A DNA stretch of 64,000 nucleotides from the NCBI GenBank assembly GCA_020137815.1, contig CM035357.1:5766001-5830000 (forward strand), read 5' to 3'. The position numbers and the translations under genes were made by a program. Position 1 is the first letter of the stretch; every line of letters begins with the position of its first letter. Under the pieces are notes generated by a model that had not been told where the DNA came from, ran no database searches, and was given only the letters and a program-made list of their open reading frames with translations. Source of the stretch: Hormiphora californensis. Taxonomy: Eukaryota > Animalia > Ctenophora. Shown here piece after piece: positions 3,338-61,717 of this stretch.

Positions 3338-6252
3338 TAGAAATAAAGAGAGAGATAAAGGTAGAGCTAGATGAACAAAAGAGACACACAAGATATTCTA
3401 TGACGCCGACTCACTTCAGCTGATACTTGCTCCGGGCTGTTGATACAAATAAACTTACACCGAGATTGGTCCGAAATATGTTGCTAAGGTATGTCTCTCT
3501 GTTTGGTCAGTATCATGTCAGGTCATGACGTCATATGTTCATGTGTACGTACCCCAGATACGTTATCAATGGTTGATAGCTTGTTGTTGCTAAGATTCAG
3601 GGTTTCCAGATGAATTAGAATCTGTAATGCTGAGCACATGTACCTGCAGAACAAATGGGTTGGGATTGAGTCTTTGTAACTTGGTTCCCCCCTCCCCCCT
3701 GGACAACATTGTCTTGGTCAGAATAGATCGCCCCTCCCCTTGCCACCGCACCAAGTGGAGGCACTTGTTGATTGGAGTCTAGACTCGACGCACCCAGTGG
3801 AGGAACCCAGTCGAGGCTAGACTGTGGAACCACGTGGTTTAAAGATTCGAATTATGAAGAGTATCATGGACCTCATCAACATTGGATATAAGAGAAACAA
3901 CACATAATTGATTCACTTTTGAATTTTAAGTGGAATATTTAAATGAAACTTTGAATAATAAGGTCATTTAGATACAGCAATTAGTGTTCAACTCACTCTA
4001 TGTCGTTGTGAGAGAGATCGAGTGTTTTCAGGGTATTCCAGGAAGCAGTATCTTCATTATCCTCTTCACACGCCCACACCAGCACATCTTCTAGATCTGA
4101 AGGAAAAGGGGGTCGTAAAAATTAAATTCGGGGATCCGGAAGAGGGCAAGGACATCTTCTAGATCTGGGTGTGAGGGGGTTGTTAAGTACACTTTCTAGA
4201 TCTAGATCTGGAACGAAGATGGGAGTATTATAGATAGATCTTGGAAATATATGTAAAGCGGGGTGGGGTTATGAAAATATATCTGTAAGAGGGGGGGGGT
4301 GGTATAACTAGAACCTAACCAGACCCGGATATATGGAGTTTGTTGGAGTGTATTATAGATCTGGGGGGGGTGCAGTTGGTATATATTACCCGATATGTTG
4401 GCGGATATGACGAGATGGTGAAGTGTACATTACCCGATATATTGGCGGATATGACGAGATGGTGAAGTGTACATTACCCGATATATTGGCGGATATGACG
4501 AGATGGTGAAGTGTATCCCCCAGAATACCGAGTGACGTCACGCCTCTAAAATCCACCTTCTGAAATGGGAACAGTCTCCCGCACACATACACACACATAG
4601 AGGTACACACAGCTACTGTTATATAGAGGGATTTAGAGAGAGATAGAGATAGAAAGAGAGAGAGATAGAGGGATGTTTGTGAAAGTGAAACAAGACGGCA
4701 AAACATCTGACAAACAAAACACTTTCGCTTTCTTCATGTTTTCATAAACCATGAAATAGCAAAATCTCATGATAACAAAGAGGTCAATAATTGACAGAGA
4801 ATGGAATTAATGATGAGGCAATCCCTTCCAGAATTATCAGTCACGTTAATCCAAGACGACCTCTCTCTCAACAGACCTCATCAGTACATACACACACGAC
4901 AAACATTCCACAACACACAGAGAACAAAATGACATGGATATTCTACTATTAGTAAATTAATGTAGGAATATTGAACATCGATGCATCGCGATGAGAATGT
5001 CGACTGTTACAACTTAAATCCTGTATAATGGTTAATGACCGGAAGACATCTAACTTACTAACTTACTTTTTTAGTTACTAACCTCTAGAGTGAGAGAGGT
5101 AGCTGATAGGAAGAGGGATAGATCCAGGTTGGGATGGTCGGGTTTGTACTGGTGGGAAACAACTTCTCCCTCGCTAAATCTATCTCCTATAATCTAGGGG
5201 GAATTAAAGTTTAGATTACCAGTACAGTAATACCTTGGTATCGAAGACACCTCACACTCTTCACGCGCCGGCAAGGGAGGGGTAACTTCGTTACCAAAGT
5301 AATACCATCCAAATTCCAATTACCAATCCACATCTCGTATTAACTTGTAGAATTGTTAATCCCATGACTAGGGGGGGGGGGGGGGGGAGATGACACTAAC
5401 CCTAATGTTCCAAATGCTCTCAAGAGCCAGTCTCAAATCTGTGAATGGTATCTGGGGGTCATCCAATGACAAATTGAGAGAATGAAGTTGTTTTTCAGTC
5501 AACAACAGCTCTTCCTCACAGCAGTTCAATATCTCCCAAACAGGCAGATCATCCTCTGTTCCTCGGAGACTTTTCAGTGTTTCTAGTGTCACCTTGGATA
5601 CCCTCTGTGTGGATAAGGATATGTTAGAATGTATCAATATCAATATCAAGAAAGTGAAAATTAAGTACAATAAAAAGGTTTTTGTTTGTTTGTTAGGACG
5701 TGTTAGAAACAATAAAATATCAAAATTTAAATCGAGCTAGTTCCTACATGTTTGTGAAGACCGAGGAATTCTTCAACAACAGGTTGATCAATAATCTGAT
5801 TTAGGGCAGCAACGAAATCCGATACCCCCTCTTGATGCGTTGATATTTTCCTCTCATTGGGCCGGATATTCCATCGAGGAAATAGTGTTGTGAAGTCTGC
5901 CCTCTGGTGTTCGGGAGGGAGCTGGGAGTGTAGTTTGGAAAAGGCAGGTTTGGTTTTTAGTAGGGTGTATTTACAGGATTCCCCCTCGACTGTAATGAAA
6001 TAATGCTGAAAATAGTAGAAATGTTAGTTACACTTACTATGTACTACACTGAGCAAGCCAGTGTACAGTTTATATTATTGTTGTATTAATATTTAAGTAG
6101 TACAGTAATCTTGCTCGACCCTCTCTCTGAGCCCCGTTTGAACAAAATAATTGTGCTCTTTTCCCATTACTTACCAATTCAAATTTAAGAAGATCAATAT
6201 CATGTTTCCATAAACTAACAGATTCCAAGTGAAAGGTAAATTCTTCGATCAT
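58..6252 (-). CDS. Nischarin-like protein (degenerate N-terminal PX domain, LRRs, acidic region, C-terminal PH-like region); multi-exon
   Basis: Approximate exons 6252-6175, 6005-5748, ~5604-5401, ~5193-5083, 4559-4478, 4096-3998, ~3630-3553, ~2886-2763, 2357-58, with GT-AG ends. LRR motifs WNTLKTLDLSHNDI, LGNVTSLNLSHNHIKSLAGLERLFSLESLDLCNNLI and LEILWLQGNPL. C-terminal LLEEDIVRWPPP resembles the nischarin C-terminus. Confidence 0.75.
3181..3333. repeat. (AG)n microsatellite, intronic
   Basis: Visible directly; source of the spurious SLSLSL/RERERE ORFs. Confidence 0.95.
4385..4515 (-). repeat. 3 x 44-bp tandem duplication of an exon end plus 5' splice donor
   Basis: ATTACCCGATAT(A/G)TTGGCGGATATGACGAGATGGTGAAGTGTA recurs at 4385, 4429 and 4473. 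On the - strand each copy reads ...ATATCGG|GTAAT. Confidence 0.9.
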
Positions 6253-8379: not shown

Positions 8380-9910
8380 TAGCGGTACATCTATTAATAG
8401 ATCAGTGATATTAGATGTGGAGAGTTATACTAATTAAGTGTGGAGAGGTAAATCGTACGTGTCATTTATTTACTAGAATATTGATCCAGATTCCAGGTTC
8501 ATTGTTTCGCGTCGACCAATCAGCATTCAGTTCATTGTTTCAAGTCGACCAATCAGTACAGGAATGGCATGGTTCGTACTATGAGCATGCCTCAGCTCAG
8601 GTGAAGACTGAGCTACTTCTATCCACTGCCACGGCTAGGTTCTGATCCTCTGGGTTGTGATCCTCTTCATGGGTAATATAACTTAGTCCTCTGGGAGAGT
8701 CTTCCGTTCCTTGCACTCTTAACAACATGCATATGCCACACATACATGCAACCCTCTCTCTATATACTGCCAAATATCTTCACACTCAATATAACCCTTT
8801 CTCTGTATACTGCCAAATATCGTTCCACTCTCACACTGTCTAAACCACACTACAACAAGGAGTTGTTGAGAGATGATCTTTGTGCTCTCCAACAACAGTA
8901 ATGGCCCATTAAAGCGATAGCAGTCTCTAGCTCTCTGATTCAACATTCGCTAGTGTCTATCACGTGTTTATATAAATGTTGTAATGGCTCTGCCTGCTAT
9001 CATTGTTCTGTGTTTGTTCACTCTGTGCTGCACATTTTCCTTTTCTATACTATGAAGACTACTCTAACTTGCTATGAGTTGTCAGGCATTGCTACCTGCT
9101 TCTACCATATATTTTGGGAACAGCGGGCGTTCTCCAATTCGTTCCTGTCGTACGCGGTATTAACTCATATCGCGTCTCGGTGTCTCCCAGACGACCCTAC
9201 GAACATAGGACGAGTAAAGAAGATATTTCGTGGGTTCTGGGACAAGCGGCGGTGGCGTGATCTCGAGCCTACCGCCTATCGTACCGGGGCGAGGTTTCAG
9301 GGACTCTTCAATGGTCCCGCTTACTCTCGGAGACTTTTCTTCCGTAACGACGTGCTGGTCGGCTGCCCCTTTTACGGTAAGTTTTGTACCCAGTTTTCTG
9401 GAGTCGATAAAATTTTCTAGATTTTTTGGTGTTTTTAATTGTCTTTTATACTTTTTTAAACTTATTGCAGAATGCAGCTCTAGCATTTGTCCTCACTCTT
9501 CCCTCTTTACAGTTTATTACAGTTTGTTGTATGTGGGGAAGTTTAGAGTTTACAGTTTGTAAACTGAATTTGGAGTGTTTAAAAACACTCCAAAAATGCA
9601 ATCCTAAAATATTTCACCTTAAAATACCAAACCAGTTGTTTTGAATCAAACAAGGGCAAATTGATACATCTCTTGGAACTTCACAGCAAACTTAAACTAC
9701 TGAAAAAGGACGTGAAACTCCTTTTAAACTTCTTTAAAAAGTCTCGCAAAATTAAAAAAAAACTAAAAAAAACTTTTGTCTTCAAATAAATGTAAAACCA
9801 GTTCATTAAAATACACTGAGCGCTGTACTGCTCAAGATAATAAATAATGTAACACGCGATGTATTTGTATGATCGCGAAGCATCGCGCGTTTTGAATTCA
9901 GCTCAGCTCA

Positions 9911-10128
9911 GTGGAAGCTCTTACGGTAATTCCCACGCCCCGTGGGAAAGTTTTTGACCGTGGGAAAATTTTCGAACCGTGGGAAAAGAGAGATACATAC
10001 AATAACTCTAAAAAAATAATTATTTTTTAAACGTTATTGTATATATCTCTCTTTTCCCACGGTTCGAAAACTTTCCCACGGTCGAAAACTTTCCCACGGG
10101 GCGTGGGAAATACCGTAAGAGCTTCCAC
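9911..10128. mobile_element. Foldback MITE upstream of UBC9
   Basis: GTGGAAGCTCTTACGGTA.TTCCCACGCCCCGTGGGAAAG ... CTTTCCCACGGGGCGTGGGAA.TACCGTAAGAGCTTCCAC; arms ~90 bp with a repeated CCGTGGGAAA motif. Confidence 0.8.
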
Positions 10129-10494
10129 AGCCTGGCAAGAAGAGCTTTTCAGATTTCAAAACCCAAAGATTTCAAAAAACCCAAAGATTTTCGGGTTTGT
10201 CGGTCGATTTTCGTGCCCTCCGGCCTCCTCGTGTCCCCAGCCTGCAGCATGGTCTTGTAAATCCACTGCGAACCTTACAGTTTTGTAATCTTGCGAGCCT
10301 CTTGGATAAATGTTGAGTCTCTCAGTGCAAGTCTGTCGCTCGGTCTCTCATCTCTTTTCCAAAAGTCTCATCTCTGTCGCCTGACAGACGTCAGTTTATC
10401 AATCAGGTGGAATTGGGAAACAATGTTTCTTCAAACGCGTTATACTTACTCTAACCTCTAAAGACGCATCGACTTAACACAATGCCCCCTAGTT

Positions 10495-13106
10495 ATGACA
10501 GGAATCGCCCTTGGTCGTCTGCAGGAAGAAAGGAAAGCGTGGAGAAAAGATCACCCGTTCGGTTTTGTAGCCAAGCCTGTCAAAAATGCAGACGGTACAC
10601 TAAACCTTATGAACTGGGAATGCTCAATTCCAGGTAGAGTTTGTTGCACGATAGTTGTAGACAGTATCACAAGTTATTGAATGTTACGACGTGTGTAGGA
10701 ACGCTGTTGTTATCATCCCTTCTCTGTTCTCAGTTCTCAAACAGAAACTGTCCAGTGTAAACTAAGGACAATAATTTTCTACACTTCAGAGTTCCTAAAA
10801 ACGTCCTGAAATGTACTTCTCTCAGACAATTAACCAATAGCATTTATCTCCAGGCAAGAAAACGACACCCTGGGAGGGAGGTCAGTACAAGTTGAGAATG
10901 ATTTTCAAAGATGATTACCCTACCACGCCACCTAAGTGCAAATTTGAGCCGCCCCTTTTCCATCCCAACGTGTATCCCTCTGGAACCGGTGAGTCAACAA
11001 CTTTTACTATAATAAACAGTTATCACACGGCATATCATTTGAATATGATAACCACCTGGTGCAATGTCTATTGTTTGGCGTGTTTATTAATGTGAGAAAA
11101 TTGGAAAACTACCAGGGTGTGAGACTTCGCTAGCAATAAGTGTCCTAAGTTTAGTTTATTGTTCAATAATTCAATACACACACGTCAAACATGTGTGTTA
11201 AACGAAGTTGGGGTGTGTTTTGTAGAGGCTTCTTGTCAGGTTACTTGTCTGCAGAATATTACATTGTCTCTCTAGGACTCAATAGTGTATTGGGCAATGC
11301 AATTCAACCCCGGCTTAATATTATATATAATATATATATTGCATAGTTGTTAATGTACAATAGCTCTCCCCGGCTCTCCGTCTGTTTCTCTCACTCTCTC
11401 CCTGCAGTGTGTGTACATCACTTATCCCTTATAAACTGTTCATTGTGATATCTGTGAGCTCTCTACACCCATACACAGAGGGTACTACCCAACATATTCA
11501 TTCTTTCCTTTGGCCTTTGTCTAGAATACCCTTCCATTTAATTCTCTAGAAAATTCCTCTTAAATTTCCCCCTTCCCCTCGCACTGCCCTCTCCCTCTAT
11601 CCATTTTTCTTACTTCGCCTCTCTCAACCCCCTTTCTCTCACTATTACTCTCCTTCCCCTCTCTCTCTCTCTAACCCTCCTCCCCTCAGTGTGTTTGTCA
11701 CTCCCCTCTCTCTAACTCACCTCTCTGCAGTGTGTTTGTCCCCCTCTCTCTCTAACCCTCCTCCCCTCAGTGTGTTTGTCCCCCTCTCTCTCTAACCCTC
11801 CTCCCCTCAGTGTGTTTATCACTCCCCTCTCTCTAACTCACCTCTCTGCAGTGTGTTTGTCACTCCCCCTCTCTAACTCACCTCCCCGCAGTGTGTTTGT
11901 CCCCCTCTCTCTCTAACTCACCTCCCCGCAGTGTGTTTGTCACTCCCCTCTCTCTAACCATCCTCACCTCAGTGTGTTTGTCGCTCCCCTCTCTCTAACC
12001 CACCTCTCTGCAGTGTGTTCGTCACTCCCCTCTCTCTCTAACCCTCCCTCCCCGCAGTGTGTTTGTCACTCCCCTCTCTCTAACCATCCTCCCCTCAGTG
12101 TGTTTGTCCCCCTCTCTCTAACTCACCTCCCCTCAGTGTGTTTGTCACTCCCCTCTCTCTAACTCACCTCCCCGCAGTGTGTTTGTCACTCCCCTCTCTC
12201 TAACCCTCCCTCCCCTCAGTGTGTTTGTCACTCCCCTCTCTCTAACTCACCTCCCCGCAGTGTGTTTGTCACTCCCCTCTCTCTAACTCACCTCCCCGCA
12301 GTGTGTTTGTCACTCCCCTCTCTCTAACTCACCTCCCCTCAGTGTGTTTGTCACTCCCCTCTCTCTAACTCACCTCACCTCAGTGTGTTTGTCACTCCTG
12401 GATGAGGAGAAAGACTGGAGACCAGCCGTTACAATCCGACAAATCCTCCTTGGAATTCAGGTAACCTGGTTACCAAGGTTACCATGCTACAACAGTTCCA
12501 CAATTGTCACCTAGTTACCCAACAATGTACAAGTTTCACTTAGTTACAGGGTATCCTATACCAGTATTCACAGATTATACTCACATATCAAACCACACAC
12601 TAATGTTACACACACATTCAATATTTGACACTGATGAGGAATGACCTCATGAAATAATTACACCTCTCTGACAGCAGTATGTTGAATGTTGATACTGACA
12701 AACTAACAGACATAACTTCAAAACATGTCAATGTAAAGATGTAAGAGAAGCTGTCATACACTTAGAACAGACTAAAATTTGAAATGTAGGAGGGATCTAG
12801 GACTATTGGCATGTCAGTCACCATCTCACATTCCTTTATCTAGTGTTCACTATTCTATATTTAGCTTTTACCTACTGCTGTCAGTCCTTCCCCATTTCAC
12901 AATCTCTCATCTTTAAAATAATTCAAAACCTTGACTCTCTAAATGATTGAATTATTTGAAAATGTACCCTCTCATCACAGGAGCTACTGAACGAACCCAA
13001 TATCCGGGATCCCGCCCAAGCTGAGGCCTACACCATCTTCAACCAAAACCGGGCAGAATACGACAAACGAGTGAGGCAACAAGCCCTGAAATTCTTCCCC
13101 CGTTGA
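10495..13106 (+). CDS. UBE2I: SUMO-conjugating enzyme UBC9
   Basis: Exons 10495-10633, 10854-10988, 12384-12460, 12981-13106 give [24 protein letters not shown]...[53 protein letters not shown]... Confidence 0.97.
11665..12398 (+). repeat. ~18 x 38-43-bp tandem array of the UBC9 intron2/exon3 acceptor junction
   Basis: Unit TCTCTCTAAC(T/C)CACCTCCCC(G/T)CAG|TGTGTTTGTCACTCCCC; CAGTGTGT counted 18 times from 11687 to 12381. Confidence 0.95.
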
Positions 13107-16166: not shown

Positions 16167-19100
16167 CTAGTACACAGCAGTTCCCTCCTCTCCCGCAATA
16201 ATTTCTGAGGAGAGTTTGGAGATGACATCGTGAAGCCAGTAGTCGGATGGCATTGGGAAGGTCTTCATTGTTAGTAACAACTCCCTGTTTTCTGATTCCT
16301 GGAACAACGCCTTCCAAATCTGGTGAGGGTGGGGGGGGGGTTAAATTCTGTCTCATCTGTTTCATTTCTAGGTCTAGCAAAGCCATCTGTCGCATATAAT
16401 AATCGTCAGAGGCCATATAAAATCAGAAAATAATAAAGAAGAGACCACTTATAATGTGGCTAATAATGCGGCTACTACTCACGTGCACAAGAAGTGTGGC
16501 TGTCCGCAAGCCCATCATGTCTACTGCACATATCTCTGTTAGTTTGGTGTATGGGAGGTGGTTCAACGTTGCCCCGACTTCACTGACACATGCCCGTAAT
16601 GTTTCCAACTCTTCCTCACTCTAAAAAGGAGGGGGGATTTAATAAAAAAGGGCGGAGTTTAATAAAAGAGGGAGTTTACTAAAAGGGAGACTAGTGAGTG
16701 TTCGGGAAAATGGGGTTAACTTACCGATGGTAACTGTGAAGGTAACCCAAGGTAACCATGGTAAACCCCAGCCCCGGTGTCCCATTGTGGTATGTAGTGT
16801 TTGTGGGTGTGGAGTCGTTCCAAACAACACGTTAGAGCTTCCTCCTCCCGAGATACTATCTTCTGGGTCGCTATGGGGGGAGAGATATTGAATATCAGGA
16901 GGAGTTTACATATTTACAAATGAAGGTTAATCAAACACGAAAAGAGGTCTTCCTAATGAGAGGAGATTTGAGAGAATAACAAAAACAGCTAACAATATTT
17001 GCTTTTCCTCTCCAGTCTCCAAAAGGAGTTGCAATGTTTCAACCTACCAAGTTTGTCTAGGAATGTAGAGTGAGCCTGAATGTACTGTTGAGCATCACAC
17101 AGCTCCAGCACCACAACCTCCCAATCCTCTCTAAACCTCGCTGCCAGGGCCCTAGCTCCACTGAAAACCTCCCTGGGGACACGGAGTCGCCCCACACAGA
17201 ACTCTTCCTCAGTCCTGTCCCCCTGGGATCTTTGGATGACGTGGGATACTGCTGTGGTTCCCCCTCCCGGGAGGTGACGGAGGACAAATACACACCTGGA
17301 ATAAGAGAGGTGGTGGATTTATATCTGGTATTTGAAACTGTATTGGTAAGTTGTGTTCACGTCCAAGACCCCTTAATTGTATTTAGTATTTCCTACAGGA
17401 ACTGAGAACAGCTGATTATGAATGGTACTACCCACCATGATACGAGACCGAGTCGCTCCAACTGTGCCGCATAGTTGGATGTAATCTTGGCAGCTAGATG
17501 TGGGGATGTGGGTGGTAACCCCAGACTATACAGAGTGGTCCACAGAAACCAGGTATCTCTCTCATTCAGGATGTTGGGGGTTATTCCCTGGTTATCTAGC
17601 ACGTGGGAGAGAGGGTGGGCGGGGTTGCAGTAGAGTAGGAGCAACTCCCAGAATACACTGTAGTCCTCATCCTCGGTGACAACAGGGGCTGCTACCATAC
17701 CTGGGAGTGGGAGGGTGTGAGGGAGATGAGGGAGGAGGGGGAGAGGATGGTACTAAGACGGTTTTAGAAGAGGCTGATCAAACTCACACTAAGTTAGGAT
17801 TGTACCTGCTTCGAATGCTTCCTTGTACATGAGAACTGCCTGTTGTAGGGGAGCAGAGGGAGGTAGGAACCGGAGGAATAGAGCAAATGATGACATCCAA
17901 TCCATGTTCTCACACACGTTTATTGTTTTAGTAGAGCTCTCCCAAATCTAAAAATAAATGTTGAAATAAACTCGCTATTACAATAATTTAAGTTGAATTA
18001 ATTAACTGAACAAGACAAGTTATTACAAGGGGTTGTTATGTTCTAACCCTCCCTTTACGGGGGCGGGGCGCCCGAAACACAGTCTAGCTTGGCAAAAAAG
18101 GGGATAGAATATCTAACCTGTTCCCCAGAGAGAAGCACATAAATCCTCAGCCGATCATCAGATATCAGGGCATCACTTCCATTCTCCTTCCACTGCTGAA
18201 GCTGTTTCAGCACCAACTGTCTCACAACAGGGGTAGAAGACTGTGATACAAGGAGTGCTAGTTGGAAGTCCCCGGCCTTACACAAGATCTCACACGCCTC
18301 CTGGGTGCCCTTGGCAGATAGCCAGGCCAGTACAGCAGGAAGGTGGGACACACCGAGTTTACTGAATTCTAGTGTTCGTTCCTTAGCAACCATCCTCAGT
18401 TCATCACCTAACCAACTCTCTAGATTCCCCCTCCGGTGTTGTAACTCCCCATACTGGCTCCTGCTCTCCTCATCACCCTCGTCTGCCCAGAGGGCCCTGC
18501 AGAGGAGGAGAGCAGATCTCAACACACTCTCACTATCCTCCTCTCCTCCTAGCACCTCAACAAGATCATCCAGTGCAGCGTGGCCCCCTTTAGGCTGGGC
18601 TGATGTCTCATCGTCCCATCCTGTATGCTCCAACTGCACATCCAGTAGGGGATCGTGTTGTTCAGGGGTTGTTCCACACATAATCCTCTCAATTTGGAGA
18701 CGAGAGAAAATACCCGAGGCAGTTGTGTGGGAATCAAACACGCTCGTGTTGCTCTTTTTACCAGCCAACAGAGGCTGATTTAGGATACAATCCTCCCGGA
18801 TGGGTGAGATACAATGATCGATATCCAAAGTGTCGCGATAATCCCATATCTAGTTTGAAGTGAGTGTGTCCCGCAGCAATGGATTGAGATAGAGGGGGAA
18901 GGGAGAGGATTGAGGGAACGATAGAAACCCCGAAATTCTTCACCGGAGCAGCAGGTTTTATCTCTCTTGCTGTCCTTCTTCTCCTCACTAATCTCGGAAG
19001 TTTCCAACTTCTCCATTTTCAGGGCAGGTCTTAGTGAATGAACCCTTCTTAGTCAGGAGGAGAGATGAGGAGTAGTTAAAGTTAGACTCCCCAAACAAAT

Positions 19101-20840
19101 TCTCCATCTCCTCTTCCTGTTCATCCTCTTCCTCACTCTCGTTAAACCCAAACAAACCCTCTTTATACCCCTCATACCCCTCCATCTTCCTAACAATCAC
19201 CGTGCTGTTATTATTGTGCTTCATCCTAGGCTTCTCATCTTCCTCTTCTTCCTGATCTTCCTCCTCGGCTGGTTCTTCAAACATGACATCATCAGTCCCA
19301 CCATCATCCTCTCCAAAATCAATGTGTTCTGGTGACTGCTTCTCCTGTTTCATCCTCTTGACATCCTCAACCTCCTCATCTGAGTCATCCAGCAGGCCGT
19401 ACTGACTGAAATGTTTCACCATGAAGGTCCACTGGCCACTTTCTGGTTTGTACTCAATGAACTTGGCCCCCATTTTGAAGGTTTTCTTTTCTAGGTAGGC
19501 AGGGAACCCCCGGCGGATGATCTCTTTGGCGTCAGTAACGTTCTCCTTGGTACCCTTGTCTGTCGGGTAAACACACTCCAGTGTGACCTCTGAAAAGGTG
19601 GTGAACATTAAACAGCTGTTGGGGGAACATAACATTTATTCAAAAAAATTATCGTGACGAATTGTCTTGCACTATGTTCTAACTTTCGCATGAGAAAGGG
19701 TCGAGTAATGCAAGAATTGTCCTCGACAAGGACAACTTATCGACCTACCAGATCTGCGGTTGAGACCCTGTCCCTGGGGCGGTTTAATACTGTCATCCGG
19801 GTAGACAACAATCTCTTTTCTCCGGAAGAAGACCGTCTTATCAAGATCCATACCATACAAATCTACCTCGCCAAGGAACTTCACCTCTCCATACCTGAGA
19901 TATATATGGGGTTAGATTTGGTTTTGAAGAGTAGAGCTGAACTATGAAATGTTTTATAATTCCCCAATAGGCCATAAACGTTGAATTATTTGTCCCGTAC
20001 AGTACGCGAAGACAGTACAGACAACAAAAAGGTACAAAATATAAATCACTTACCCGGCGCGTCCAATGATAAGATCTCTAACAACCAGACTATCATCTTT
20101 AACCAGATCCGCTAGCTCGTTACACCCAGGGATGGTGTAATACTCAGGACGGGAGAGGGTAAAGGGAAGGGTTGGTGCAGGGGTTTTCAGTGGTTTCCCA
20201 TCCAAACCAACCAGGGGCTCTTCTTCCTCAATTTCCTGGGATGAGAAATTGAGAATTGAAAAGTTAAAAAGTTGCAAGTCTCAGTGTCAGAGTCAGTAAT
20301 AATACTCCTGGCAGGTAAGGGCGGAAAAGGAACCGGGCTCTTATAACCCAGTGTATCAGGGTATATTCCAACGACGCCCTAAACAAACAAACAAACAAAC
20401 AAACAAACAAACAAACAAACAAACAAACAAACAAACAAACAAACAAACAAACAAACAAACAAACAACCCAACTAGTTATCAGCTGTACCTGCATAGTATT
20501 CTCGATGATAGACCGATCTTTTGGAGGTGTTGTTATATCCCGGGGTGGGGTGGTTCGCTCCAGTTTCCACGAATTACGAGGGTTGTTGGTTGTGGCAGTT
20601 GGAGCTGGTGTATCAACATCAAATGGTAGTTTCCGACTAAAACAAAAACGGGATTTTAAATGCGAAAATTTGGGTGAAGTTTATAATAAAAAACATAACA
20701 GCTCATCCAAGTTAAGCGGAATAACGCAGGTGTGGATAAACTCGTTTTTTCTTTGGTTATTGGGTAAACCTACCTGATAGGTGATAGTTTGAGTGGCGTT
20801 GTGTTCAGCAGGTTGTGATTATCAGATACTGGTTCCTCTG

Positions 20841-20880
<40 letters not shown>

Positions 20881-23800
20881 GAGATTTTAGTTTAGCCTTT
20901 TTAGAATTTCGGTTTTCTACCCGGTCTGGAGGGCACAACAAGTGTCGTTTCAAAAGTCCCTAATTTATAATTCATAACAGTAACTCAGTATTATAAAACT
21001 CCCTACCAGCAGGGGGAGGAGGTACGGTAGTTGTCATATCGGCTGCTGTAGATTGCTCTGGCTCAGCTGATGAGGTGGTATGATGGTAATCTAGATCGGG
21101 TGTCTCAGGCTCACTGTACTTATTAGATTGGAGGACCAACTTCTTGAGACTGTTCCGAGGGAGGAAGGCCTTCTGGTGAGGGGGAGATATCATCTTCCAG
21201 TCCCTCAAATAGTTGGTTGTAGCTGAAGGGCTTAGGACGGGCCTGCGAGGGGGTTAGCGTGAAAATGAGAATCATCAGTATACTGATGATCAAGGATGTA
21301 ATGAATCAGTAATGAATCAGTAATGAATCAGTAATTAGATAATTCCGTTGATCCTAAAAATAGATGAATATCTCTCTCACATTGGAAAGTTTGGGGTTAA
21401 TCCTTGACTTGCTGCTGTTCACACTTGCAGGAGGAGGGGTTGTTGGTTTGATCTTCTGGTGCTCAGAGAGTGCGTTCCGGAAGAGGGGTGAATCACCAAA
21501 TGGAGTCGAGGAGAGGGCAGCTACCACAGAGTGAATGTGGGTACTGTCCAGAGAGGCACCTGGAAGAACATAGGGTTTAGAACTTTATTATTATTTCTCT
21601 CTCAGTTTCAAATCAGAAGAAGAAAATACGTTTTGGCCCGTTTCGCGGCATTTAGGTCAGGATGCAGGTTTGAATTTAGGGAAGGTGGGAATCTAGAGCA
21701 TGTCTGAATGTTGGGTAGGTCCGTATCTTGGGTCAACCGAATTCAAGAGTAGTCGCTGAATCGTGTCTCGTATCATTGCAATTCCATGATACAAGGACAG
21801 GGTGACATTCCAGACGATGTGAATTATACCGCCCCGGACACCTCACCAAACAAACTTTCGAATTCGGAACTATTACAATGGACACGAGTGGTTATCTTGT
21901 ATGACGTGGCACACACATGACGTGTCTACAATGAAAGGATTTATTTGAATGAAGGAGGATGAGGGAAGAAAACTTTTTGCATCTGACAGTGGACCTAACC
22001 CTCCTTGAGACAGGGTTGAACAAGGCTAACAGACCCAGCTGGCTGGGTGTTTGCGATTTAGTCGGTATTATAAGTGCAAAGAAAAACACATGTACTTTTA
22101 AACTAAACATTTTGAATTTAAAACTAAACATTTTGAATTTAAATATTAATTTTGCTTTATTATGGGGCCATGATTATTATCACTCCACCTTCTAGTAGTT
22201 TAGCCACTCCACCTTCTAGCAGTTTAGCCACTCCACCTTCTAGCAGTTTAGCCACTCCACCTTCTCGTAGTTTAGCCACTCCACCTTCTAGCAGTTTAGC
22301 CACTCCACCTTCTAGCAGTTTAGCCACTCCACCTTCTAGCAGTTTAGCCACTCCACCTTCTAGCAGTTTAGCCACTGCACTTTCAAGTAGTTTCTAGTAG
22401 CTTTAACAACTTAATTGCAGAGATGAACCAGTGGATCTCTCATTGGAATCAAAATCATCAACCAATGTGAAACCACACTGCTCGAGGGTACTAGAAGAAC
22501 AAAAGAGGTAAGAGAGGACATACTTCATCTCATTTTCAATCATAAACCCACAGGACAACTTGGTGTTGGAAATGTCACTAATCCACTCAGTTCTACTTCG
22601 GGTAGCGTCTCTGCTGTGGTGCCCAACGATGGTGCAAAGGTGGATTCCGTTAATGTGGTTAGAAGTGTAGGGAGTTAACCCAGTCCTTTCCTCTCCCGTT
22701 CGGTAGTTTCTAACCGTCACCAGGACATTTCCAAATTTACCACCGGACCTCATATCACCGTATTCGATGTTTCCAGCCTCGTTGTACGCCAGAGTCACGT
22801 TTTTCAGCTCCCAAAATTGTTTCCAATCGTTACTACAGGACAGCCACAGGGCATCATCGATATTCCAGTCACCGCTGGTCAGGGAGGCAGAGCAATCCCC
22901 GAGATCCGTAGAGTTTGACGGACAGTTGAGATCTTTGGTGATCACAGGTGTATTCCATTCTTTTATTGTGCTACACATGAGCTTGTACGGATTGGTAACG
23001 TTTTTCGTGACGTTGTACGTCACATAATAGTCGTATCCAGCCTTATTACACAGGATCTGGGCAGTCTTATTATCAACTCCGTTACCACCAACGAGGCCGA
23101 TCCTCTGGGTTCCGTTTGTCAGCACGACAGTTCCACTGCACGAGATAGACTCAGGGCCAGGGGGGGTACCGGGCTCACCATCGGCAATCAGCAACTCTAC
23201 TCCCAAGTCAGCCAGATCCGCAGAGTGACATCCTCCTAGGAGAAGGAGTGCTGCTGTAGTAGTCAGTAGTTGAGTGAACATGGCTTCGATCGTTCCGGTA
23301 AATTAAACTAGCTGTGCAGCTACCTTTTATATTACTAAATGGGTCGATTTAACGCCCTTCTTTCACCTGCGTGACTCACGAGAGGAGAGCGTTAAATTTG
23401 CCGTGAGTATCCTTTGTTTCCGAATGATGGTAATTCTTTGTTTGTAGTTAGATAAAGGACTTGACCCAGCACAGCTTATCGTCAATAGAAGAGGGTTTGA
23501 GTCAAGGGGAGATCTCTACTCTTATTACTAAATCAGATAAAGGACCCCTGGAGCTTGTGTTTTCTCTATAGGCATAGCACGTGCAAAACAAAGAAGTGAA
23601 AAACTGCACAAAAGACCACCCACCCATCACGTGTTTGGTGATACCACCAGGTGGTTCAAAAAATAATCACTGCGCTGGCAAGCGCAAAGGTGACCATTCC
23701 CTCCCCCCAGCCGTGCGTGCCAGAATGCAGTAATAACTTTTTTCAGTTTTTAGCCAAAAATGGCATTTTGCGACGCCCATAGCGAGGCCCCCACTCTACC

Positions 23801-25582
23801 AATCCGTCTGAAATTTGGTATACAGTGTCACATAGTCTAGATCTACTATAGTTTAAAATGACAAGTCTCTATCTCTTTTAGTTTTAGAGATATGGCATCG
23901 TGAAAAAAGCAATAAGTGTCCCGGGTCTATCTATCTATCTATCTATCTATGTATCTATGTATCTATGGATAGACGCTATTTTACCAAATTTATAATCGTT
24001 TTTGAGAGAAAACGACATATAGTCAGGACCACTATTGGTGCGCGGTCGTGCCCACGGAAGGAGTGCTTGGATTATCTTGAAACCGGTTTTAAGTTCACTA
24101 ATGCATACCCAAAAGTGTCCGTAGCCATTTGGGTGATGTTCTGTCAATCCAATCACGAGTTATGACCGAAAAACAGTCAAAAAAGACGTTTTAAAGTGAC
24201 AAAAAGGAGGATCTAAACACAGCCCTTATATGAAGGGCTGGGGCTTTGAAACTTCTTGTGTGGACAGAGAATCGTCCAAATTTGCAGTGTCAACTTTCAG
24301 ATAGTTTCTATCTTTTGTAGTTATCTAATTAGAGTCGTTTAAACACGTGAGAAGTTGCTAAAGGGGCCTATAATACTGCTTGTGAAGTGATCACTTGACG
24401 AGATTTGCCCAATTAGAGAGCGGATTAAAGCATACAAGCGGTGAGAGCAAGCAATATGAGACGGAAGTAGTACCTAATCGCCCTGTTTTGCAGGGTCATA
24501 CAGATCGTCTCACATGTTTAAACAGCTCTAATTAGATAACTACAAAAGATAGAAACTATCTGAAAGTTGACACTGCAAATTTGGACGATTCTCTGTCCAC
24601 ACAAGAAGTTTCAAAGCCCCAGCCCTTCATATAAGGGCTGTGTTCAGATCCTCCTTTTTGTCACTTTAAAACGTCTTTCTTGACGGTTTTTCGGTCATAA
24701 CTCGTGATTGGATTGTCAGAACATCACCCAAATGGCTACGGACACTTTTGGGTATGCATTAGTGAACTTAAAACCGGTTTCAAGATGATCCAAGCACTCC
24801 TTCCGTGGGCACGACCGTGCACCAATAGTGGTCCTGACTAATAAGATAGACACTTCTCGTTTGTTGCATTCGAAAGATAATCGTTTGAAATGTGTAGACG
24901 AATAGTTTTCATGTTCTAGGTCCAATCAGAACGTCTTGACAAACTGTCATAAAGATAAGACATTTTTCAAACCAACCAAATTTCTTTGAGCTCAATTTAC
25001 ACCCTGAAGACGGTTTCTGATTGAAAAACGGAGACCACACTTATGAAAGATAATCGTCTAAACTTTCAGAAACTATATCGCGAATTTGTAAAACTCTATT
25101 TCTAAGGGTCTCAAATCGCGTCTGAAGTGTTAAGACTGTATGAAAATAGATATGACGATAGTGCGTTTTTTGCCATAGCGACCTCAAATCTTGTCCAATC
25201 GATCTCAAACTTGGTCAGCCTCTTTATCTAAATGAGCCTGATAATAATACTTTCCTATCATGACGTTATAACGTCGTGACGTCACGCTATGACGTCACAA
25301 TGACGTCAAAATTAAAATTTTCGTATTTTAGCGATTCCTGACGGTCTTTACACGTCCAGACATGTCTTACATTGTATTTCACATCAGAAAATACCAAAAA
25401 TGTACCCCAATTATGCCAAAAACTAACAGAAATTAGTTGGCTGAAAAGGTGACCACTTTTGTTGTCAAATTGACACCTTTGCCCGGCCCGGGTTACGGAT
25501 ATCATCGATTGGGTAAATCAGGGGGTAAATCAGGGAGTTTGAGAAGAGAGATAGAGAGAGATAGGGAGGAAGAGAAAGAGAA

Positions 25583-25644
<62 letters not shown>

Positions 25645-26790
25645 AAGAGAGAGATATAAATTAGAGAGGGAAAGATGATGATGAAACCCGGAGAGGGCAA
25701 AGGTGTCAATTTGACAACAAAAGTGGTCACCTTTTCAGCCAACTAATTTCTGTTAGTTTTTGGCATAATAATAATAATAATAATAATATTAATAATATTA
25801 AGTTTTGTATACCGCCATATTAAGTTATGTATACCGCCACAGACACGACAGGGCCAGATTAAGTAAAACTGTACACTGACACTGAACGAGCTTTCAGAGC
25901 GGTATACCTAACGCCAAAAATGGAAGAATAATTGGAGAGAGGGGGTAAAAAAAAGTCTAATCACCTGGGGGAGAGATATTCCGGCCCGCCCTTTTAAAGC
26001 CAAAGCTAACTACTCGTTGAAAGGAGTAGAGACAAAACGAGCACCAAAGTTTCACTCCTCGATAGTGGGGGTCGGTGCTGATTAGTCTCTATCTCACTGT
26101 AGCTAATTGGAACTTAGGTGCCAAGCCTGTTTCTGGCCATGGCTAAGCCGGTTAGGAAAGGAGTAGACAAAACAAGGGATAAACTGGTACGTCCTCCATT
26201 AGTGGGGTAGGCGCCGGAATTAAGTTCTATCATCTGGTTAATCGAATGAATTAGGTCTGTACATAGACTTTTGCTATGCATATCACCACTTAGGAATGGT
26301 TTGGTTACACTGTGCCACTTGTCGATATTTATCTAAGTTGTTTGAAAAATACTCAATCTCTTAACTTGGCTGTTGGTCAAAGAGGCAAAACGAATTTCAA
26401 TTATCTCTTTTGAATGGTATTGGCTATTGCAAATACTCGAAGTTAAGGAAGGCTAATTGTTACAACTCTTAGATTTAATTGTTTTTTAACAAAATGGCAC
26501 CCGTGAAAAGTCTAAACCATTCCTAAGTGGCTAGGGCCCTTTGCCAAAAAACGGTTATGCGCTATTATCATTTCTATTTAACCTTAATTATTTGGAACCG
26601 CCATATAAGTTTGTACTCGCCAGACACGACAGGCCAATAGTAAACTGTACCTGACACTACAGTTAGGAGCGGTATACCTAACGCAAAAAAATGGAAGAAT
26701 AATTGGAGAGAGGGGTGGTGGTCGCCGGATCACTCATTTTCATTTCCCGTGATGAGAGCGGAATGAAGAAAGTATGTGAGGGAGAGATAT

Positions 26791-26833
<43 letters not shown>

Positions 26834-26870
26834 ATCGAGAGAGGAGAAGAGAGAGAGAGAGAGTAGGTAG

Positions 26871-26907
<37 letters not shown>

Positions 26908-29900
26908 AGAGAGCGAGAAGACGAGAGAGAGAGAAGACGCTTAGTAGAGGATTGCACTCGCGCGCTCTATCTCCTCGATCTCTCTCATAGTCTCTCTGAC
27001 TCTCTCTCTCTCGCTCGCGCATCTCAGCTCTACGTCTCTACATTACTACATGCTCATCTTCTACATCGCTATAGCTCAGAGATCATTGGTAATGCTAAAT
27101 GAAACTAAAAATACTCCTTCACCTACCCAGCACTGGTTGTGCGTTGTTGTTTGCAGTAAGAGTATTGGTGCCCCCGAACATCGATCCAGTATTGGTTGTA
27201 CCAAATCCACCGAACGAGGATCCAGTTTTATTAGCCGTGTTACCAAACAGACTGCTGCCTGTTGAGTGTGGGATTAGAAACTAACTGTTTTTATAGGATA
27301 CAACAAACAACTCAACTACAAACTGAAATGCAAGTGTTAGAAAGAGAGGGAGGTCAAATAGCATGGGGCAAGTTTGAACTTGATCATCCCTTCGTGACAG
27401 TGAAGTAGGGCGGGGGGGTTCCAACCTATTTTTTTGTACGGTTTTGTACGGTTTTGTACGGACCATACATAAAAGTATCCGAAATTCCTGTTTTTTTCCA
27501 TACAAACAATACAAAAAAATACAAAAAAATACAAAAAAATAATGAAGGATGTGGGTGCCTGATAAAAGTATAAATAATACATCTAGCTGGGTTCCGTTTA
27601 TGTTCATGTACCACCTATCATATATATGAACGTTTTTAGTTCCATTGTCGTCCATTTTCCTGCTAAAATTACATACTAAAAAAGTGTGTAAAATTACACG
27701 TTTTTGAAATTCTAAAAAAACGAAATCATTGATTCATATTACCGTTAAGATTACGAGAAAATTTTCTACGTTGGAGATCACTTTCTCGGTACTAATTTCG
27801 ATTCGGGATAATTTTCTCGGTAAAAAATTGCGATTTGGGGAAATTTTTCGCTTAGAAAATACGATTCGAGAAATTTTTTCGGTAAGAAATTGGGATTCGG
27901 GGAAATATCTCGCTTAGAAAATACGATTCGAGAAAATTTTTTCGGTAAGAAATTGCGATGCGAGGAAAATTTCTCGCTTAGAAAATACGATTCGAGAAAA
28001 TTTTCTCGGTAAGAAATTGCGATTCGGGGAAATTTCTCGCTTAGAAAATACGATTCAAGAAAATTTTCTCGGTAAGAAATTGCGATTCGGTGAATTTTCT
28101 CGCTTAGAAAAAACGATTCGAGAAAATATTCTCGGTAAGAAATTGCGATTCGGGGAAATTTTTCGCTTAGAAAATACGATTCGAGAAATTATTCTCGGTA
28201 AGTAATTGCGATTCGGGTAAATTTCTCGCTCAGAAAATACGATTCGAGAAAATTTTCTTTGTAAGAAATTGCGATTTGGGGAAATTTCTCGCTTAGAAAA
28301 TACGATTCGAAAAAATTTCTCGGTAAGAAATTGCGATTCGGGAAAATTTCTCTCGCTTAGAAATTGCGATTCGATAATACTTTCTTGGATAGAAAGTTCG
28401 ATTTGGAAAGATTTTCTCTCTTAGAAATTCCAATTTTTCGTACAAACAGTACAAAAAAAGCACAACAAATTATGGAGGTGGGTGCCTAGTAAAAGTTCAT
28501 GGACGGGTTCCTTTTGTCCTAATGTACCACCTAGGAACGTTTGTCGTGTAATTATTATCTTTCATTCGAAATTCGAAAAAGTAAACATCATTGATTCAGA
28601 TTTCGAAAATTTTGAATAGAATATTTCCTTGTGTTTTGATAAAGAACAATTAAAACATGATTAAAACATGTTTTTATCTTCCAATTATAAGAAAAAGTTG
28701 CTAATTTTGTATGAAACCACAGTTTAATAGGAATTTATGACACAATTATGATCATAAACTAAAGTTTCAACGATCAGAAAAGCTTTGTTTAATCGTTTAT
28801 ACCCCGTTTTATTTTTTTGTATTTTTTTGTATTTTTTTGTACTTTTTTGTATTTTTTTGTATTTTTTTGTTTGAGGAAACCCGTGTTTTTTTCCGTACAA
28901 ACGTACAACAAATAGGTTGGAACCCCCCCAGTAGGGCTCACGCTAAGAATTGAGAACAGTGAAGTATGGTATCCACTGAGATATTAGAACCCTAATTACC
29001 CAGTAACTTGTGTCATTACACAGTACGGTGTCATTACCTGTCAGGAACCGACCGACACAACCATTAACCAATCAGAACTCGTTATTTAGGTCACGTGACT
29101 GGTTATCAACCAATCAGGGGCCAGTATTTCCTGATTCGGTCGGTTCCTATTACCTGTATTAGTGCTACCGAATGTGTTTCCAGTATTTCCAAAGAGAGAG
29201 CTACCCCCTGTAGTACCACCCAGACTAAATGCTGGCTTGGCCGCTGTGTTGTTTGTATTACCGAACAATCCACCTCCTGTTCCTGTAATTAGAGATATTA
29301 ATTGATATTAATATTTAGTAGACCTAGATACTAAAATGTTAGTTCTCAAATCTTAACATTGTCATGTCTATTACTTTGAACCATTCGAACCGAGAGAGTC
29401 TGGACAAGACAATTTGAAATATAACTGTGACTCCCTTACCTAATTACTTAATTAATTAACTAATTAATTAATTACACAATTACCTAATGTATTTGTAGTG
29501 GTAGATCCGAATCCTCCAAATGTTGATTTATTAGCTGTGTTACCGAATAGTCCGCCTCCAGTCGTGCTTGTAGCAGTGTTTCCAAACAGCCCCCCAGATG
29601 TAGCTCCTGTATTTGTACCACCAAACAAACTTGATCCAGCTGAGGAGAGAGAGGGACTATTTAGAGCGGGAGGGGGGGTGAAGAGAGGGTCCGTGTTCAG
29701 GGCCACGGGGGGGGGGGGGTTCAGATGGGTTAGAGAAAGTTTTAGAATTTTGTAGCTTGGGGGTCACGTACTTGTGTTGCTTGTATTTGTGCTACCGAAC
29801 AATCCTCCAGTTGTACTTGTATTGGTAGCCCCTGAAATATAGTTTTACACATTCAGATTCAGAGAGCTTTACTATTGGTCTACAACAAACGGATAAAACC

Positions 29901-31408
29901 GTGTTTAAATGTTCTAACTCTCATTTACTCCAGCGTACGGCGAGAGTTGGTAATGAAATTACCCCTCCGCAAAAGCTCAATATAATAACAAGGGTGACCT
30001 CGTAATGGCGAGAGAAGGTCGAGTAAGGCGAACAAAAAGAAACAACTTACCAAACAGACTGTTCGGTTTATTAGCAGTGTTGGTACTCCCAAACAGTCCT
30101 GTACTGCCTGTATTGGTGCTGCCAAATGCGTTGTTAGTTGTAGTACTCCCAAATCCAGTGCTACCGAATGTGTTTGTTGTGTTGGCGGTATTAGTGCCAC
30201 CAAATAGAGATGATGTCCCTGTGTTAGTCGTGCTACCAAATAATCCTGTGGGCTGGGGGAATGGGTGTCAGTATATATCACTGTGCGGGCAAGGTGACCA
30301 TACTGAAATATCAGTCTTTATCTTGTGTAGTTAACGCCACATTATAGGGATCGGTAGAGCAATCTGACACCTGAACACACTACTGCTAAATACTAACTTT
30401 GTTTGCAGTGTTACTCCCAAAGAGTCCGCCTGATGTAGCGGTATTATTTGTACTTCCAAAGAGTCCCCCACTTGTCGCATTGTTAGTGGTAGACCCAAAC
30501 GCTCCGAAACTTGAGGTATTGTTGGTAGTGTTGGTGTTAGTAGCCCCGAACAATCCCCCGGTTGCAGGTTGGGCGGGCTGTGCTGTGCCAGTTGAGTTTC
30601 CAGCTTTTCTTCCCGCTAAATAGTCCTCACAACGGAGCTCCTCCATTGATTTGTTCTCGTACTCCTTCATACAGGTGATTACCTGCTGCTTTACCTGCAC
30701 CGTCTGGGGATAGGGGGTAGGTTAGGGGTACTTGCACTGTATAAAACAGGGGATAGGATAAGTGAGGGCTAAGGGACCTTCAGTGAGGGTTCCCAGATTT
30801 AAAAAATTCCCTCTGGGTAATTTGGTTGAAATGAAAAAACATAATTTAAAACTTACCGTGGACTGTCCCTTGACAACCAAGGTATCATTAGTAACAACAG
30901 GGTTAAACTGAATGTTAGTTCCATTCTGTTGAGTAGCTCCAAACCCAGTACTGGAACCTCCAAACAAAGATGACCCCCCAGCATTAGTACTGGTGCTAGT
31001 TCCCCCAAAGAGGCTGTTAGAACTAGAAAACCCAGTAGTACCGCCTGACCCAAACAGGCCACCACTGGATGTTGACGCTGCGGCGTTATTACCAAATAAG
31101 GAACTGCCCCCTCCGAAAGCACTCGTAGTGTTAGTCGCCCCGAATGAGGATCCCCCTCCAAAACTGCTGTTGGATGCCCCAAACAGCCCTGAACTGGCTG
31201 CTGGTTTTGCACCGAATAGTCCTCCTGAGGTGCTATTGTTGGGGGTACTACCGAAGGTCGAGGTCGAGCCAAAACCAGTGTTAGTGGTACCAAAGGTGGA
31301 CTTGTTACCGAATAGGCCACCCTGTTGTTGTTGTTGTGCATTGTTGTTTGACCCGAACCCTCCGAACGAGTTTGAACCAAAAGTGTTGTTTGAGGTGTTC
31401 CCAAACAT
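16167..31408 (-). CDS. NUP98: Nuclear pore complex protein Nup98-Nup96 precursor (contains apparent frameshifts)
   Basis: FG/GLFG exons 31408-30857, 30703-30398 (GLEBS motif ITCMKEYENKSMEELRCEDY), 30252-30051, 29831-29772, 29639-29484, 29282-29154, 27258-27127. Then 21559-21381 (PFGDSPLF), 21242-21007, 20837-20774, 20636-20489, 20235-20054, 19894-19749, 19589-18118 (autoprotease site KHF/SQYGL at ~19405-19413). Further Nup96 exons follow; the last exon 16319-16167 contains PMPSDY. Confidence 0.95.
20381..20464. repeat. (AAAC)n microsatellite, intronic
   Basis: Visible directly. Confidence 0.95.
22180..22378. repeat. ~8 x 24-bp minisatellite just after the stop codon of the nested SRCR-like gene
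   Basis: Unit TTTAGCCACTCCACCTTCTAGCAG. Confidence 0.95.
22403..23281 (-). CDS. Secreted Cys-rich protein with two divergent SRCR-like domains; intronless, nested in a Nup98 intron
   Basis: 292-aa ORF with signal peptide (MFTQLLTTTAALLLLGGCHS). SRCR-like motifs SGTVVL..., AQILCNKAGY, DLNCPSNSTDLGDC, LWLSC, and a second repeat ending LFCSSSTLEQC...LQLSC. TATAAAA lies ~45 nt upstream of the ATG. Confidence 0.75.
   Translation of the reverse strand: MFTQLLTTTAALLLLGGCHSADLADLGVELLIADGEPGTPPGPESISCSGTVVLTNGTQRIGLVGGNGVDNKTAQILCNKAGYDYYVTYNVTKNVTNPYKLMCSTIKEWNTPVITKDLNCPSNSTDLGDCSASLTSGDWNIDDALWLSCSNDWKQFWELKNVTLAYNEAGNIEYGDMRSGGKFGNVLVTVRNYRTGEERTGLTPYTSNHINGIHLCTIVGHHSRDATRSRTEWISDISNTKLSCGFMIENEMKYVLSYLFCSSSTLEQCGFTLVDDFDSNERSTGSSLQLSC
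23667..25770 (-). mobile_element. Helentron-associated (HINE/DINE-1-like) non-autonomous element
   Basis: In - orientation: ~75-bp 5' inverted repeat (25410-25485 vs 25695-25770) containing sub-TIR AAAGGTGACC; internal TCTA microsatellite (~23926-23965); 3' sub-TIR GGTCACCTTT followed by hairpin TGCGCT-TGCC-AGCGCA. Homologous to 57110-58188. Confidence 0.75.
24020..24840. mobile_element. Long-TIR MITE (~330-bp arms, TAG...CTA ends, ATA TSD; Academ-like) nested in the HINE
   Basis: ATA-TAGTCAGGACCACTATTGGTGC ... GCACCAATAGTGGTCCTGACTA-ATA. Absent at the homologous position of the 57110 copy. Confidence 0.8.
26286..26530. mobile_element. Small MITE
   Basis: CCACTTAGGAATGGTTT ... AAACCATTCCTAAGTGG. 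Confidence 0.6.
27412..28929. mobile_element. G-capped TIR element (family A) with 8-bp TSD and internal ~59-bp tandem array
   Basis: AGTAGGGC-GGGGGGGTTCCAACCTATT ... AATAGGTTGGAACCCCCCC-AGTAGGGC. Subterminal (TTTTTGTA)n; internal units GAAAATTTTCTCGGTAAGAAATTGCGATTCGGGGAAATTTCTCGCTTAGAAAATACGATTC at 27800-28430. Confidence 0.92.
29042..29148. mobile_element. 107-bp MITE with a 9-bp TSD that duplicates a Nup98 splice donor
   Basis: ATTACCTGT-CAGGAACCGACCGA ... TCGGTCGGTTCCT-ATTACCTGT. Confidence 0.8.

Positions 31409-51905: not shown

Positions 51906-61717
<9,812 letters not shown>

Follow-up and report, generated by a model that had tools for sequence, protein, structure and literature searches.

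The UBC9 intron that precedes the catalytic-cysteine exon ends in 18 tandem copies of its own 3' splice junction, and the last of these copies is the one used in RNA contigs. The gene is compact and lies on the + strand of the window (the whole 64-kb stretch of DNA analyzed here). We consider it likely that the array is a "mirage"-type minisatellite that arose by recent, near-neutral expansion, and that the 17 upstream acceptors (here named decoys) lose against the last copy for want of an exon body and a donor. The features found are those of a mirage: a tandem minisatellite, a unit comprising both junction and exon sequence, an authentic copy in the terminal position, regular splicing, and a relative with a single copy.

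The identity of the gene, already proposed in a preliminary description of this DNA, was established by domain and homology searches. The 19 best PDB matches of the second coding exon (exon 2) are all UBC9/UBE2I chains, with E values of 2.8e-24 to 1.2e-22 over residues 48 to 91 of 158, and the Pfam domain UQ_con was found on three UBC9 exons (E value on exon 2, 3.2e-15). Since the exon 2 alignment ends at residue 91, the codon split by the intron and the first codon of the catalytic-cysteine exon (exon 3) correspond to V92 and C93, the latter being the catalytic cysteine of UBC9. The coordinates of all features are compiled in Table 1.

Table 1. Features of the UBC9 locus and its acceptor array (positions refer to the window)
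Feature	Positions	Strand	Evidence
5' UTR exon, cis-spliced, 3' end	9346-9375	+	End of X7 RNA contig before 10492 matches window 30/30
First coding exon, ATG at 10495, ends WECSIPG	10493-10633	+	RNA joint 10628/10849, cut +5
Second coding exon, KKTTPWEGG...HPNVYPSGT, donor G/GTGAGT at 10988/10989	10854-10988	+	UQ_con, UBC9 residues 48-91, RNA joints
Intron, 1,395 nt, final 719 nt are the array	10989-12383	+	RNA joint skipping 1,395, GT..AG, 4/4 runs
Possible degenerate older junction copy (TCTCTCACTC-TCTCCCTGCAGTGTGT)	11387-11412	+	Local alignment to unit
41-bp minisatellite, 18.0 copies, 17 decoy acceptors	11665-12398	+	Tandem Repeats Finder
Signals of used acceptor: CTAAC (second A 12368, 16 nt before exon), pyrimidine tract, CAG 12381-12383	12365-12383	+	All RNA joints end here
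Catalytic-cysteine exon, Cys codon TGT 12386-12388, donor CAG/GTAACC	12384-12460	+	RNA contigs, Pfam
Last coding exon, ELLNEPN...FFPR, then stop	12981-13106	+	RNA joint 12457/12978, cut +3

At the 5' end of the gene, an X7 contig extends by 114 letters upstream of the acceptor of the first coding exon. The same acceptor also takes a spliced leader, as leader letters were found before 10491 in contigs of runs X8 and X9. This leader does not occur in the window. All of its 19 letters agree with a part of the 44-nt spliced leader of Hormiphora californensis (PMC8527503), which points to a pleurobrachiid ctenophore as the source of the window. At the other end, the 3' UTR extends to at least 13299 in one X9 RNA contig.

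The array is organized head to tail with a period of 41, 18.0 copies, and 88% matches (Tandem Repeats Finder score, 1092), and anchoring on the motif AGTGTGT yielded exactly 18 acceptor copies, in line with the roughly 18 copies of about 40 bp first described. Within a unit, CTAAC is followed by a pyrimidine tract, then by CAG, and last by the 15 nt with which the catalytic-cysteine exon begins. This composition, which had likewise been proposed, was borne out in every copy. CTAAC and CAG are intact in 18/18 copies, the distance from the second A of CTAAC to the would-be exon start is always 16 or 17 nt, and the pyrimidine fraction of the tract ranges from 0.76 to 0.88. The 15 nt after each CAG represent the start of exon 3, TGTGTTTGTCACTCC, with variants in seven copies. 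The CAGs end at 11689, 11730, 11770, 11810, 11851, 11891, 11931, 11972, and 12013 (copies 1 to 9) and at 12057, 12098, 12136, 12177, 12219, 12260, 12301, 12342, and 12383 (copies 10 to 18), and the decoy exon starts span 11690 to 12343. The authentic junction is the terminal array copy, with position 12368 as its predicted branch point, and it alone continues into LDEEKDW, as noted before. Use of any of the 17 decoys leads to a premature stop after 7 to 49 codons, and the 12-residue peptide previously given for a typical upstream copy is exact for 11 of them. The idea that about 17 near-identical acceptors have to be skipped is thus matched by a count of 17 intact-looking decoys.

With up to three mismatches allowed, a 30-nt pattern of the unit junction matched the window 11 times, always within the array, compared with 0 in 100 shuffles; by this pattern, the array unit was not found elsewhere in the window. 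An older, decayed copy had been suggested at about 11405. Similarity to the unit does exist there, with positions 11387 to 11412 reaching an alignment score of 32 (null mean, 19.8; standard deviation [SD], 3.3; 1 of 300 shuffles reaches 32), and its origin as a junction copy is tentative. The CT-rich part of the intron up to 11400 is common to other loci, as seen from loose contig ends.

The copy number of 18 is taken solely from the assembly. Our DNA evidence consists of contigs of public runs aligned to the locus, and such short-word contigs cannot count copies, which would be compatible with one or a few real copies multiplied by assembler stutter. Several observations make this artifact very improbable. 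The units differ in ordered, subfamily-like ways, and array-internal stretches are matched exactly by DNA contigs from two samples (S1 and S2) of the same organism, sequenced in two studies. These exact matches include combinations of neighboring units, namely, 124 nt in an X1 contig (11953 to 12076, units 8 to 10) and 62 nt in an X6 contig (11695 to 11756, units 2 to 3), the latter without other letters, and contigs from these samples also cover both array borders. Furthermore, 17 to 56 contigs per run fit two places in the stretch in the organism of S1 and S2, compared with 0 of 40 in a related organism (here named organism B). Exact array-internal contigs and two-place contigs together argue against stutter. 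The units are also polymorphic in sequence, as indicated by half-depth variant contigs in X1 and by differences between S1 and S2, with copy number being unreadable from contigs.

To determine which acceptor is used, we relied on assembled contigs from four metatranscriptome runs of three studies (poly(A)/cDNA); such contigs drop rare isoforms and give no quantities, and the samples are environmental, from individuals whose arrays may be of other lengths than that in the window. In all four runs, a contig joins the donor at 10987/8 to the last acceptor at 12383/4, confirming the previously proposed pairing of donor 10988 with acceptor 12383. Past the junction, the contigs continue into unique exon 3 and then exon 4, and their exon 3 letters are those of the window and not those of organism B. 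Regular splicing persists, with the authentic site being used as far as the contigs show; last-acceptor choice, one of the options raised in the preliminary description, is therefore what the contigs of 4/4 runs display. Since all transcripts seen in contigs use the last site, the finding leans toward a neutral minisatellite, an outcome for which that description had provided. Neither a decoy junction nor coverage of the intron or array was found in the contigs of the four runs, which is weak as evidence of absence given that rare forms are dropped. For the same reason, leaky use of decoys may occur and could even be substantial if nonsense-mediated decay (NMD) clears the products. Short X9 contigs that end 10 to 14 nt past the junction were considered as branches to decoys; of the three, two have a length of 61 nt, which equals 2k - 1 for k = 31, and because of this we read them as probable SNP bubbles.

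As UBC9 mRNA contigs carry the leader at the first coding exon and every decoy is a complete acceptor, the decoys might also serve as additional spliced-leader acceptors that give rise to 5'-truncated transcripts. However, the leader is joined to the array or to exon 3 in no RNA contig, and the start codon and half of the fold would be missing from the products, so that we regard such a role as extremely unlikely.

How the last copy is selected can be proposed from the sequence around the acceptors. Because the intron-side signals are alike in all copies, the choice would rest on downstream sequence. There, the real acceptor is followed by a purine fraction of 0.58 versus 0.20 to 0.27 after the decoys, and a purine-rich stretch begins at about 12399 in the catalytic-cysteine exon. 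This enhancer-like stretch, GAGGAGAAAGA, together with the donor 77 nt away, would stabilize U2AF/U2 on the nearest upstream acceptor by exon definition, and with enhancer strength fading with distance, the nearest acceptor would be favored. Behind the decoys lies CU-rich sequence in which no GT is found farther than about 10 nt from the CAG; the decoys thus have no usable donor and can form no separate exon. Splicing from decoys 13 to 17 to the exon 3 donor would give exons of 118 to 283 nt. Exon length hence fails to separate the last acceptor from these decoys, and the case for exon definition would rest on enhancer proximity. Transcripts leaking to decoys would meet a stop within 7 to 49 codons and would likely be removed by NMD.

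Two further routes to a correct product were rejected. Productive stepwise splicing, another option of the preliminary description, looks impossible because the sole donor that would be regenerated, ACC/GTGTGT, removes one base and would shift the frame. Masking of the decoys by RNA structure was rejected, with a minimum free energy (MFE) of -88.0 compared with -90.0 (SD, 5.3) in shuffles (z = +0.37).

The array was also compared with organism B, whose intron is about 90% alike. Contig pieces of this relative with a depth of 31.3 cover unique intron sequence at 11515 to 11569 and 11628 to 11653. After 11653 follow 26 other letters ending in CTCTCTCTAACCCC, one tract-CAG with the 15 nt, and then TTGACGAGGAGAA, i.e., exon 3. 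Based on their equal depth, these pieces appear to belong to one contig, and as read from it, organism B carries a single acceptor copy and an unduplicated junction. The array is therefore a lineage-specific expansion and not a conserved device. Several joints of organism B in CT-rich sequence, as well as an X6 joint from 11400 to 11653 (side 20, depth above its flanks), most likely stem from other loci. Scans of metagenome contigs for a degenerate exon 3 start and for the unit junction gave 0 matches each.

Some units of the array are exact copies of one another (13, 15, and 16; 3 and 4), and subfamilies of units recur every three to four units. Both patterns point to recent multi-unit duplication that was most active at the exon-near end. 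In both organisms, two short direct repeats flank the duplicated segment: ACTCTCC, which immediately precedes the branch region, and CACTCC at exon bases 10 to 15. The first duplication may have occurred by slippage or unequal exchange between them, and in the later growth, several units at a time would have been duplicated, mostly close to the exon. Arrays detected by Tandem Repeats Finder make up 8.7% of the window, and tandem repeats are reported to account for 13% of the Hormiphora californensis genome (PMC8527503); a mutational origin of the array fits such a tandem-repeat-rich genome.

The state of the decoys could point in another direction. At least 22 variant states are distributed over 44 alignment columns of the units, and none falls into the eight columns that CTAAC and CAG occupy. 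If the variants were spread uniformly, which is a crude model, these signal columns would stay variant-free by chance with a probability of (36/44)^22, i.e., about 0.012. The decoy signals could thus be under constraint; the pattern would be explained equally well by the youth of the array, by homogenization from the selected real copy, or by mutational hot spots in the CT runs. The preliminary description had offered a copy-number-tunable poison acceptor as one reading of the array, in which some transcripts would be spliced to decoys, acquire a stop, and be degraded, so that array length would set UBC9 output. The 17 decoys, all with intact CTAAC, tract, and CAG and all leading to early stops, as well as the variant-free signal columns, are in keeping with this idea, and some leak is plausible from the use of the nearest pseudo-sites in human 6-16 and CBS (PMC1557585). 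We nevertheless judge it very unlikely. Decoy use is absent from the RNA contigs of the four runs (weak evidence, as contigs drop rare forms), and dosage control by poison acceptors and NMD is made less likely by the absence of the array in organism B, whose single copy would make such a device very young. Repeats of this type are also found in unrelated genes and in other phyla, where they are described as neutral to splicing and have no known function, and a candidate second junction repeat in a neighboring gene argues for a mutational process rather than a UBC9-specific design.

A 7-nt motif, ACTCACC, in 10 array units is a perfect complement of the donor GGTGAGT, although this match was found post hoc; in silico folding of naked RNA pairs the donor to the array with a probability of about 0.99. 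A further conceivable role is that of a young, copy-number-variable throttle on SUMO conjugation, in which some UBC9 pre-mRNAs would either be lost to decoys and then to NMD or be held back because the donor GGUGAGU pairs with the array's 10 ACUCACC motifs. We hold this throttle to be decidedly unlikely. If it were true, longer arrays would result in less Ubc9, and the decoy signals would be kept by selection and not by youth.

The decoys could also promote intron retention, with the 17 acceptors engaging the donor unproductively and slowing removal of the intron, a reading with which the predicted pairing would agree. Decoy splice sites are a known model for retained introns of more than 1 kb, including decoy exons that promote retention of, e.g., SF3B1 intron 4 (PMC6097662, PMC7373989). 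The UBC9 decoys resemble decoy exons in being unproductive splice sites in an intron of more than 1 kb that could engage the terminal sites. They differ in being tandem acceptors only, whereas a decoy exon is one cryptic exon with a splice site on either side, and retention was measured for such exons. In contrast to decoy-exon introns, the UBC9 intron shows no retention in RNA contigs (no contig over the intron in four poly(A)/cDNA runs, which is weak evidence). The decoys have no paired donor and so do not qualify as exons, the intron's donor would normally be occupied by U1 before transcription reaches the array, and the 10 complementary units, paired with a probability of about 0.99 in silico, go back to a 7-mer match found post hoc. 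Decoy-driven retention is thus highly improbable in our view. Both the spotless signals and the donor pairing could be by-products of youth, homogenization, and post hoc searching, and the array is most likely tolerated clutter.

We compared the array with known splice-junction repeats. Amphioxus "mirages" (PMC3087553, PMC3902484) include an acceptor-side case in the globin gene BflGb6, in which the unit consists of the intron's 3' end together with the exon's 5' part. Amphioxus units are 81 to 100% alike and show concerted evolution, copy-number differences between haplotypes, and somatic instability, and reverse transcription-PCR (RT-PCR) indicated regular splicing even though many copies keep AG/GT (PMC3087553, PMC3902484). 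The UBC9 array shares with these mirages, as described there, a junction-spanning unit with exon sequence and many copies that keep splice signals, and with BflGb6 the acceptor side. Its unit of 41 bp compares with 150 to 160 bp in the amphioxus globins and 10 to 72 bp in Adh3 (PMC3087553, PMC3902484). Unlike the amphioxus arrays, it is found in a ctenophore and not in a cephalochordate, its 18 copies all have an intact branch motif, tract, and CAG, and the part of the exon that is copied includes the codon for the catalytic Cys of an essential enzyme.

In humans, minisatellites at donor-side junctions are described for F7 (the 37-bp variable number tandem repeat [VNTR] of IVS7), 6-16 (IFI6), CBS IVS13, LMNB2, and PDGF (PMC1557585). 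Splicing there employs the authentic site next to the exon, while the pseudo-sites, though functional, stay silent; in 6-16 and CBS, the two pseudo-sites closest to the authentic one are used in addition through leakage (PMC1557585). As in UBC9, the terminal unit of these arrays spans the exon-intron boundary and the pseudo-sites are identical. However, the human arrays concern 5' splice sites with the authentic copy first, whereas UBC9 has 3' splice sites with the authentic copy last. The oriented 5'-to-3' scanning put forward for F7 would, when applied to acceptors, favor the first decoy, and the choice in UBC9 therefore needs exon-side cues.

Elsewhere in the window, we noted a candidate donor-side junction repeat at 4385 to 4515 in a neighboring gene. 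Pfam returned nothing for the candidate exon at this site, and the one homolog found (P0003, 94% identity) starts downstream of the repeat. CT-rich duplications before an RRM exon (48720 to 48810) and before a Ras exon (55754 to 55825) were rejected as mirages, being without exon sequence. An Rfam search of the whole window gave 0 families.

A literature search found no paper combining ctenophores, minisatellites, and introns in the mirage sense. The UBC9 array is one more case of the known class of repeats that copy splice junctions, and probably the first noted in a ctenophore. For genome annotation, it carries the warning that gene predictors may settle on a decoy and thereby cut UBC9 short at the catalytic cysteine. 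Beyond this, it constitutes a natural experiment: the real acceptor has upstream of it, at 41-nt spacing, 17 others whose branch motif, tract, and CAG are identical, and this in a gene intolerant of mis-splicing and in an organism that also trans-splices. Such a setting could reveal to what extent the choice of a 3' splice site depends on exon-side cues alone and whether the donor-side scanning rules of F7 have a counterpart on the acceptor side.

The heptanucleotide ACTCACC, whose first base is the presumed branch A, occurs in 10 of the 18 units of the minisatellite at the end of the UBC9 intron (window positions 11715 to 12374), with just two further occurrences on the plus strand of the whole window. 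All seven bases of ACTCACC are complementary to GGTGAGT, the donor of this very intron (10988 to 10994), and the duplex has an energy of -11.8 kcal/mol. On the minus strand, the sites in the array read as ten consensus 5' splice sites. In one assembled contig of the public DNA run X6, position 11400 was joined to 11653, skipping 252 nt of the same intron (side 20), and depth exceeded that of the flanks. This contig might represent an allele lacking that stretch, but an origin from a different CT-rich locus is the more likely explanation.

A second array, with a 44-bp unit in 3.0 copies of 98% identity, was observed on the minus strand at 4385 to 4515, in an STK11IP-like gene neighbouring UBC9. 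Each unit comprises the final 37 nt of an exon-like open reading frame segment followed by GTAATG, making the array a candidate donor-side junction repeat, i.e., a tandem array whose unit spans a splice site and adjoining exon sequence.

Features identified in the window
Feature	Position	Strand	Remarks
Exon-like ORF segment	4559-4478	minus	acceptor ...ttcag at 4560; LRR-like peptide
Three tandem donors of the candidate junction repeat	~4477, ~4433, ~4389	minus	44-bp unit
299-codon open frame	22181-23302	minus	SRCR domain, E 2.1e-6
601-codon open frame	45124-46926	plus	without Pfam family

The SRCR open frame lies within the span of the Nup98-96 exons (18058 to 31465, minus strand) and is possibly a gene nested there. 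Directly after the stop codon of this frame, a 24-bp unit is repeated in 8.9 tandem copies. The 601-codon frame contains a 27/84-bp coding repeat at 45251 to 45542. A 63-bp satellite (CGATTCGAGAAAATTTTCTCGGTAAG...) was found at two loci, 27799 to 28427 (~10 copies) and 60588 to 61180 (~9 copies), and related 18-bp repeats are located immediately upstream of UBC9 (9940 to 10190). Together, these arrays and repeats suggest a dispersed satellite or a mobile element.

Assembled UBC9 mRNA contigs from public metatranscriptome runs revealed two 5' forms. In run X7, an upstream exon (matched at its 3' end, 9346 to 9375) is joined by cis-splicing, while contigs of runs X8 and X9 carry 19 letters of a leader that are identical to part of the published H. 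californensis spliced leader. Since both forms are present, UBC9 is both cis- and trans-spliced at one common acceptor (10491 to 10493).
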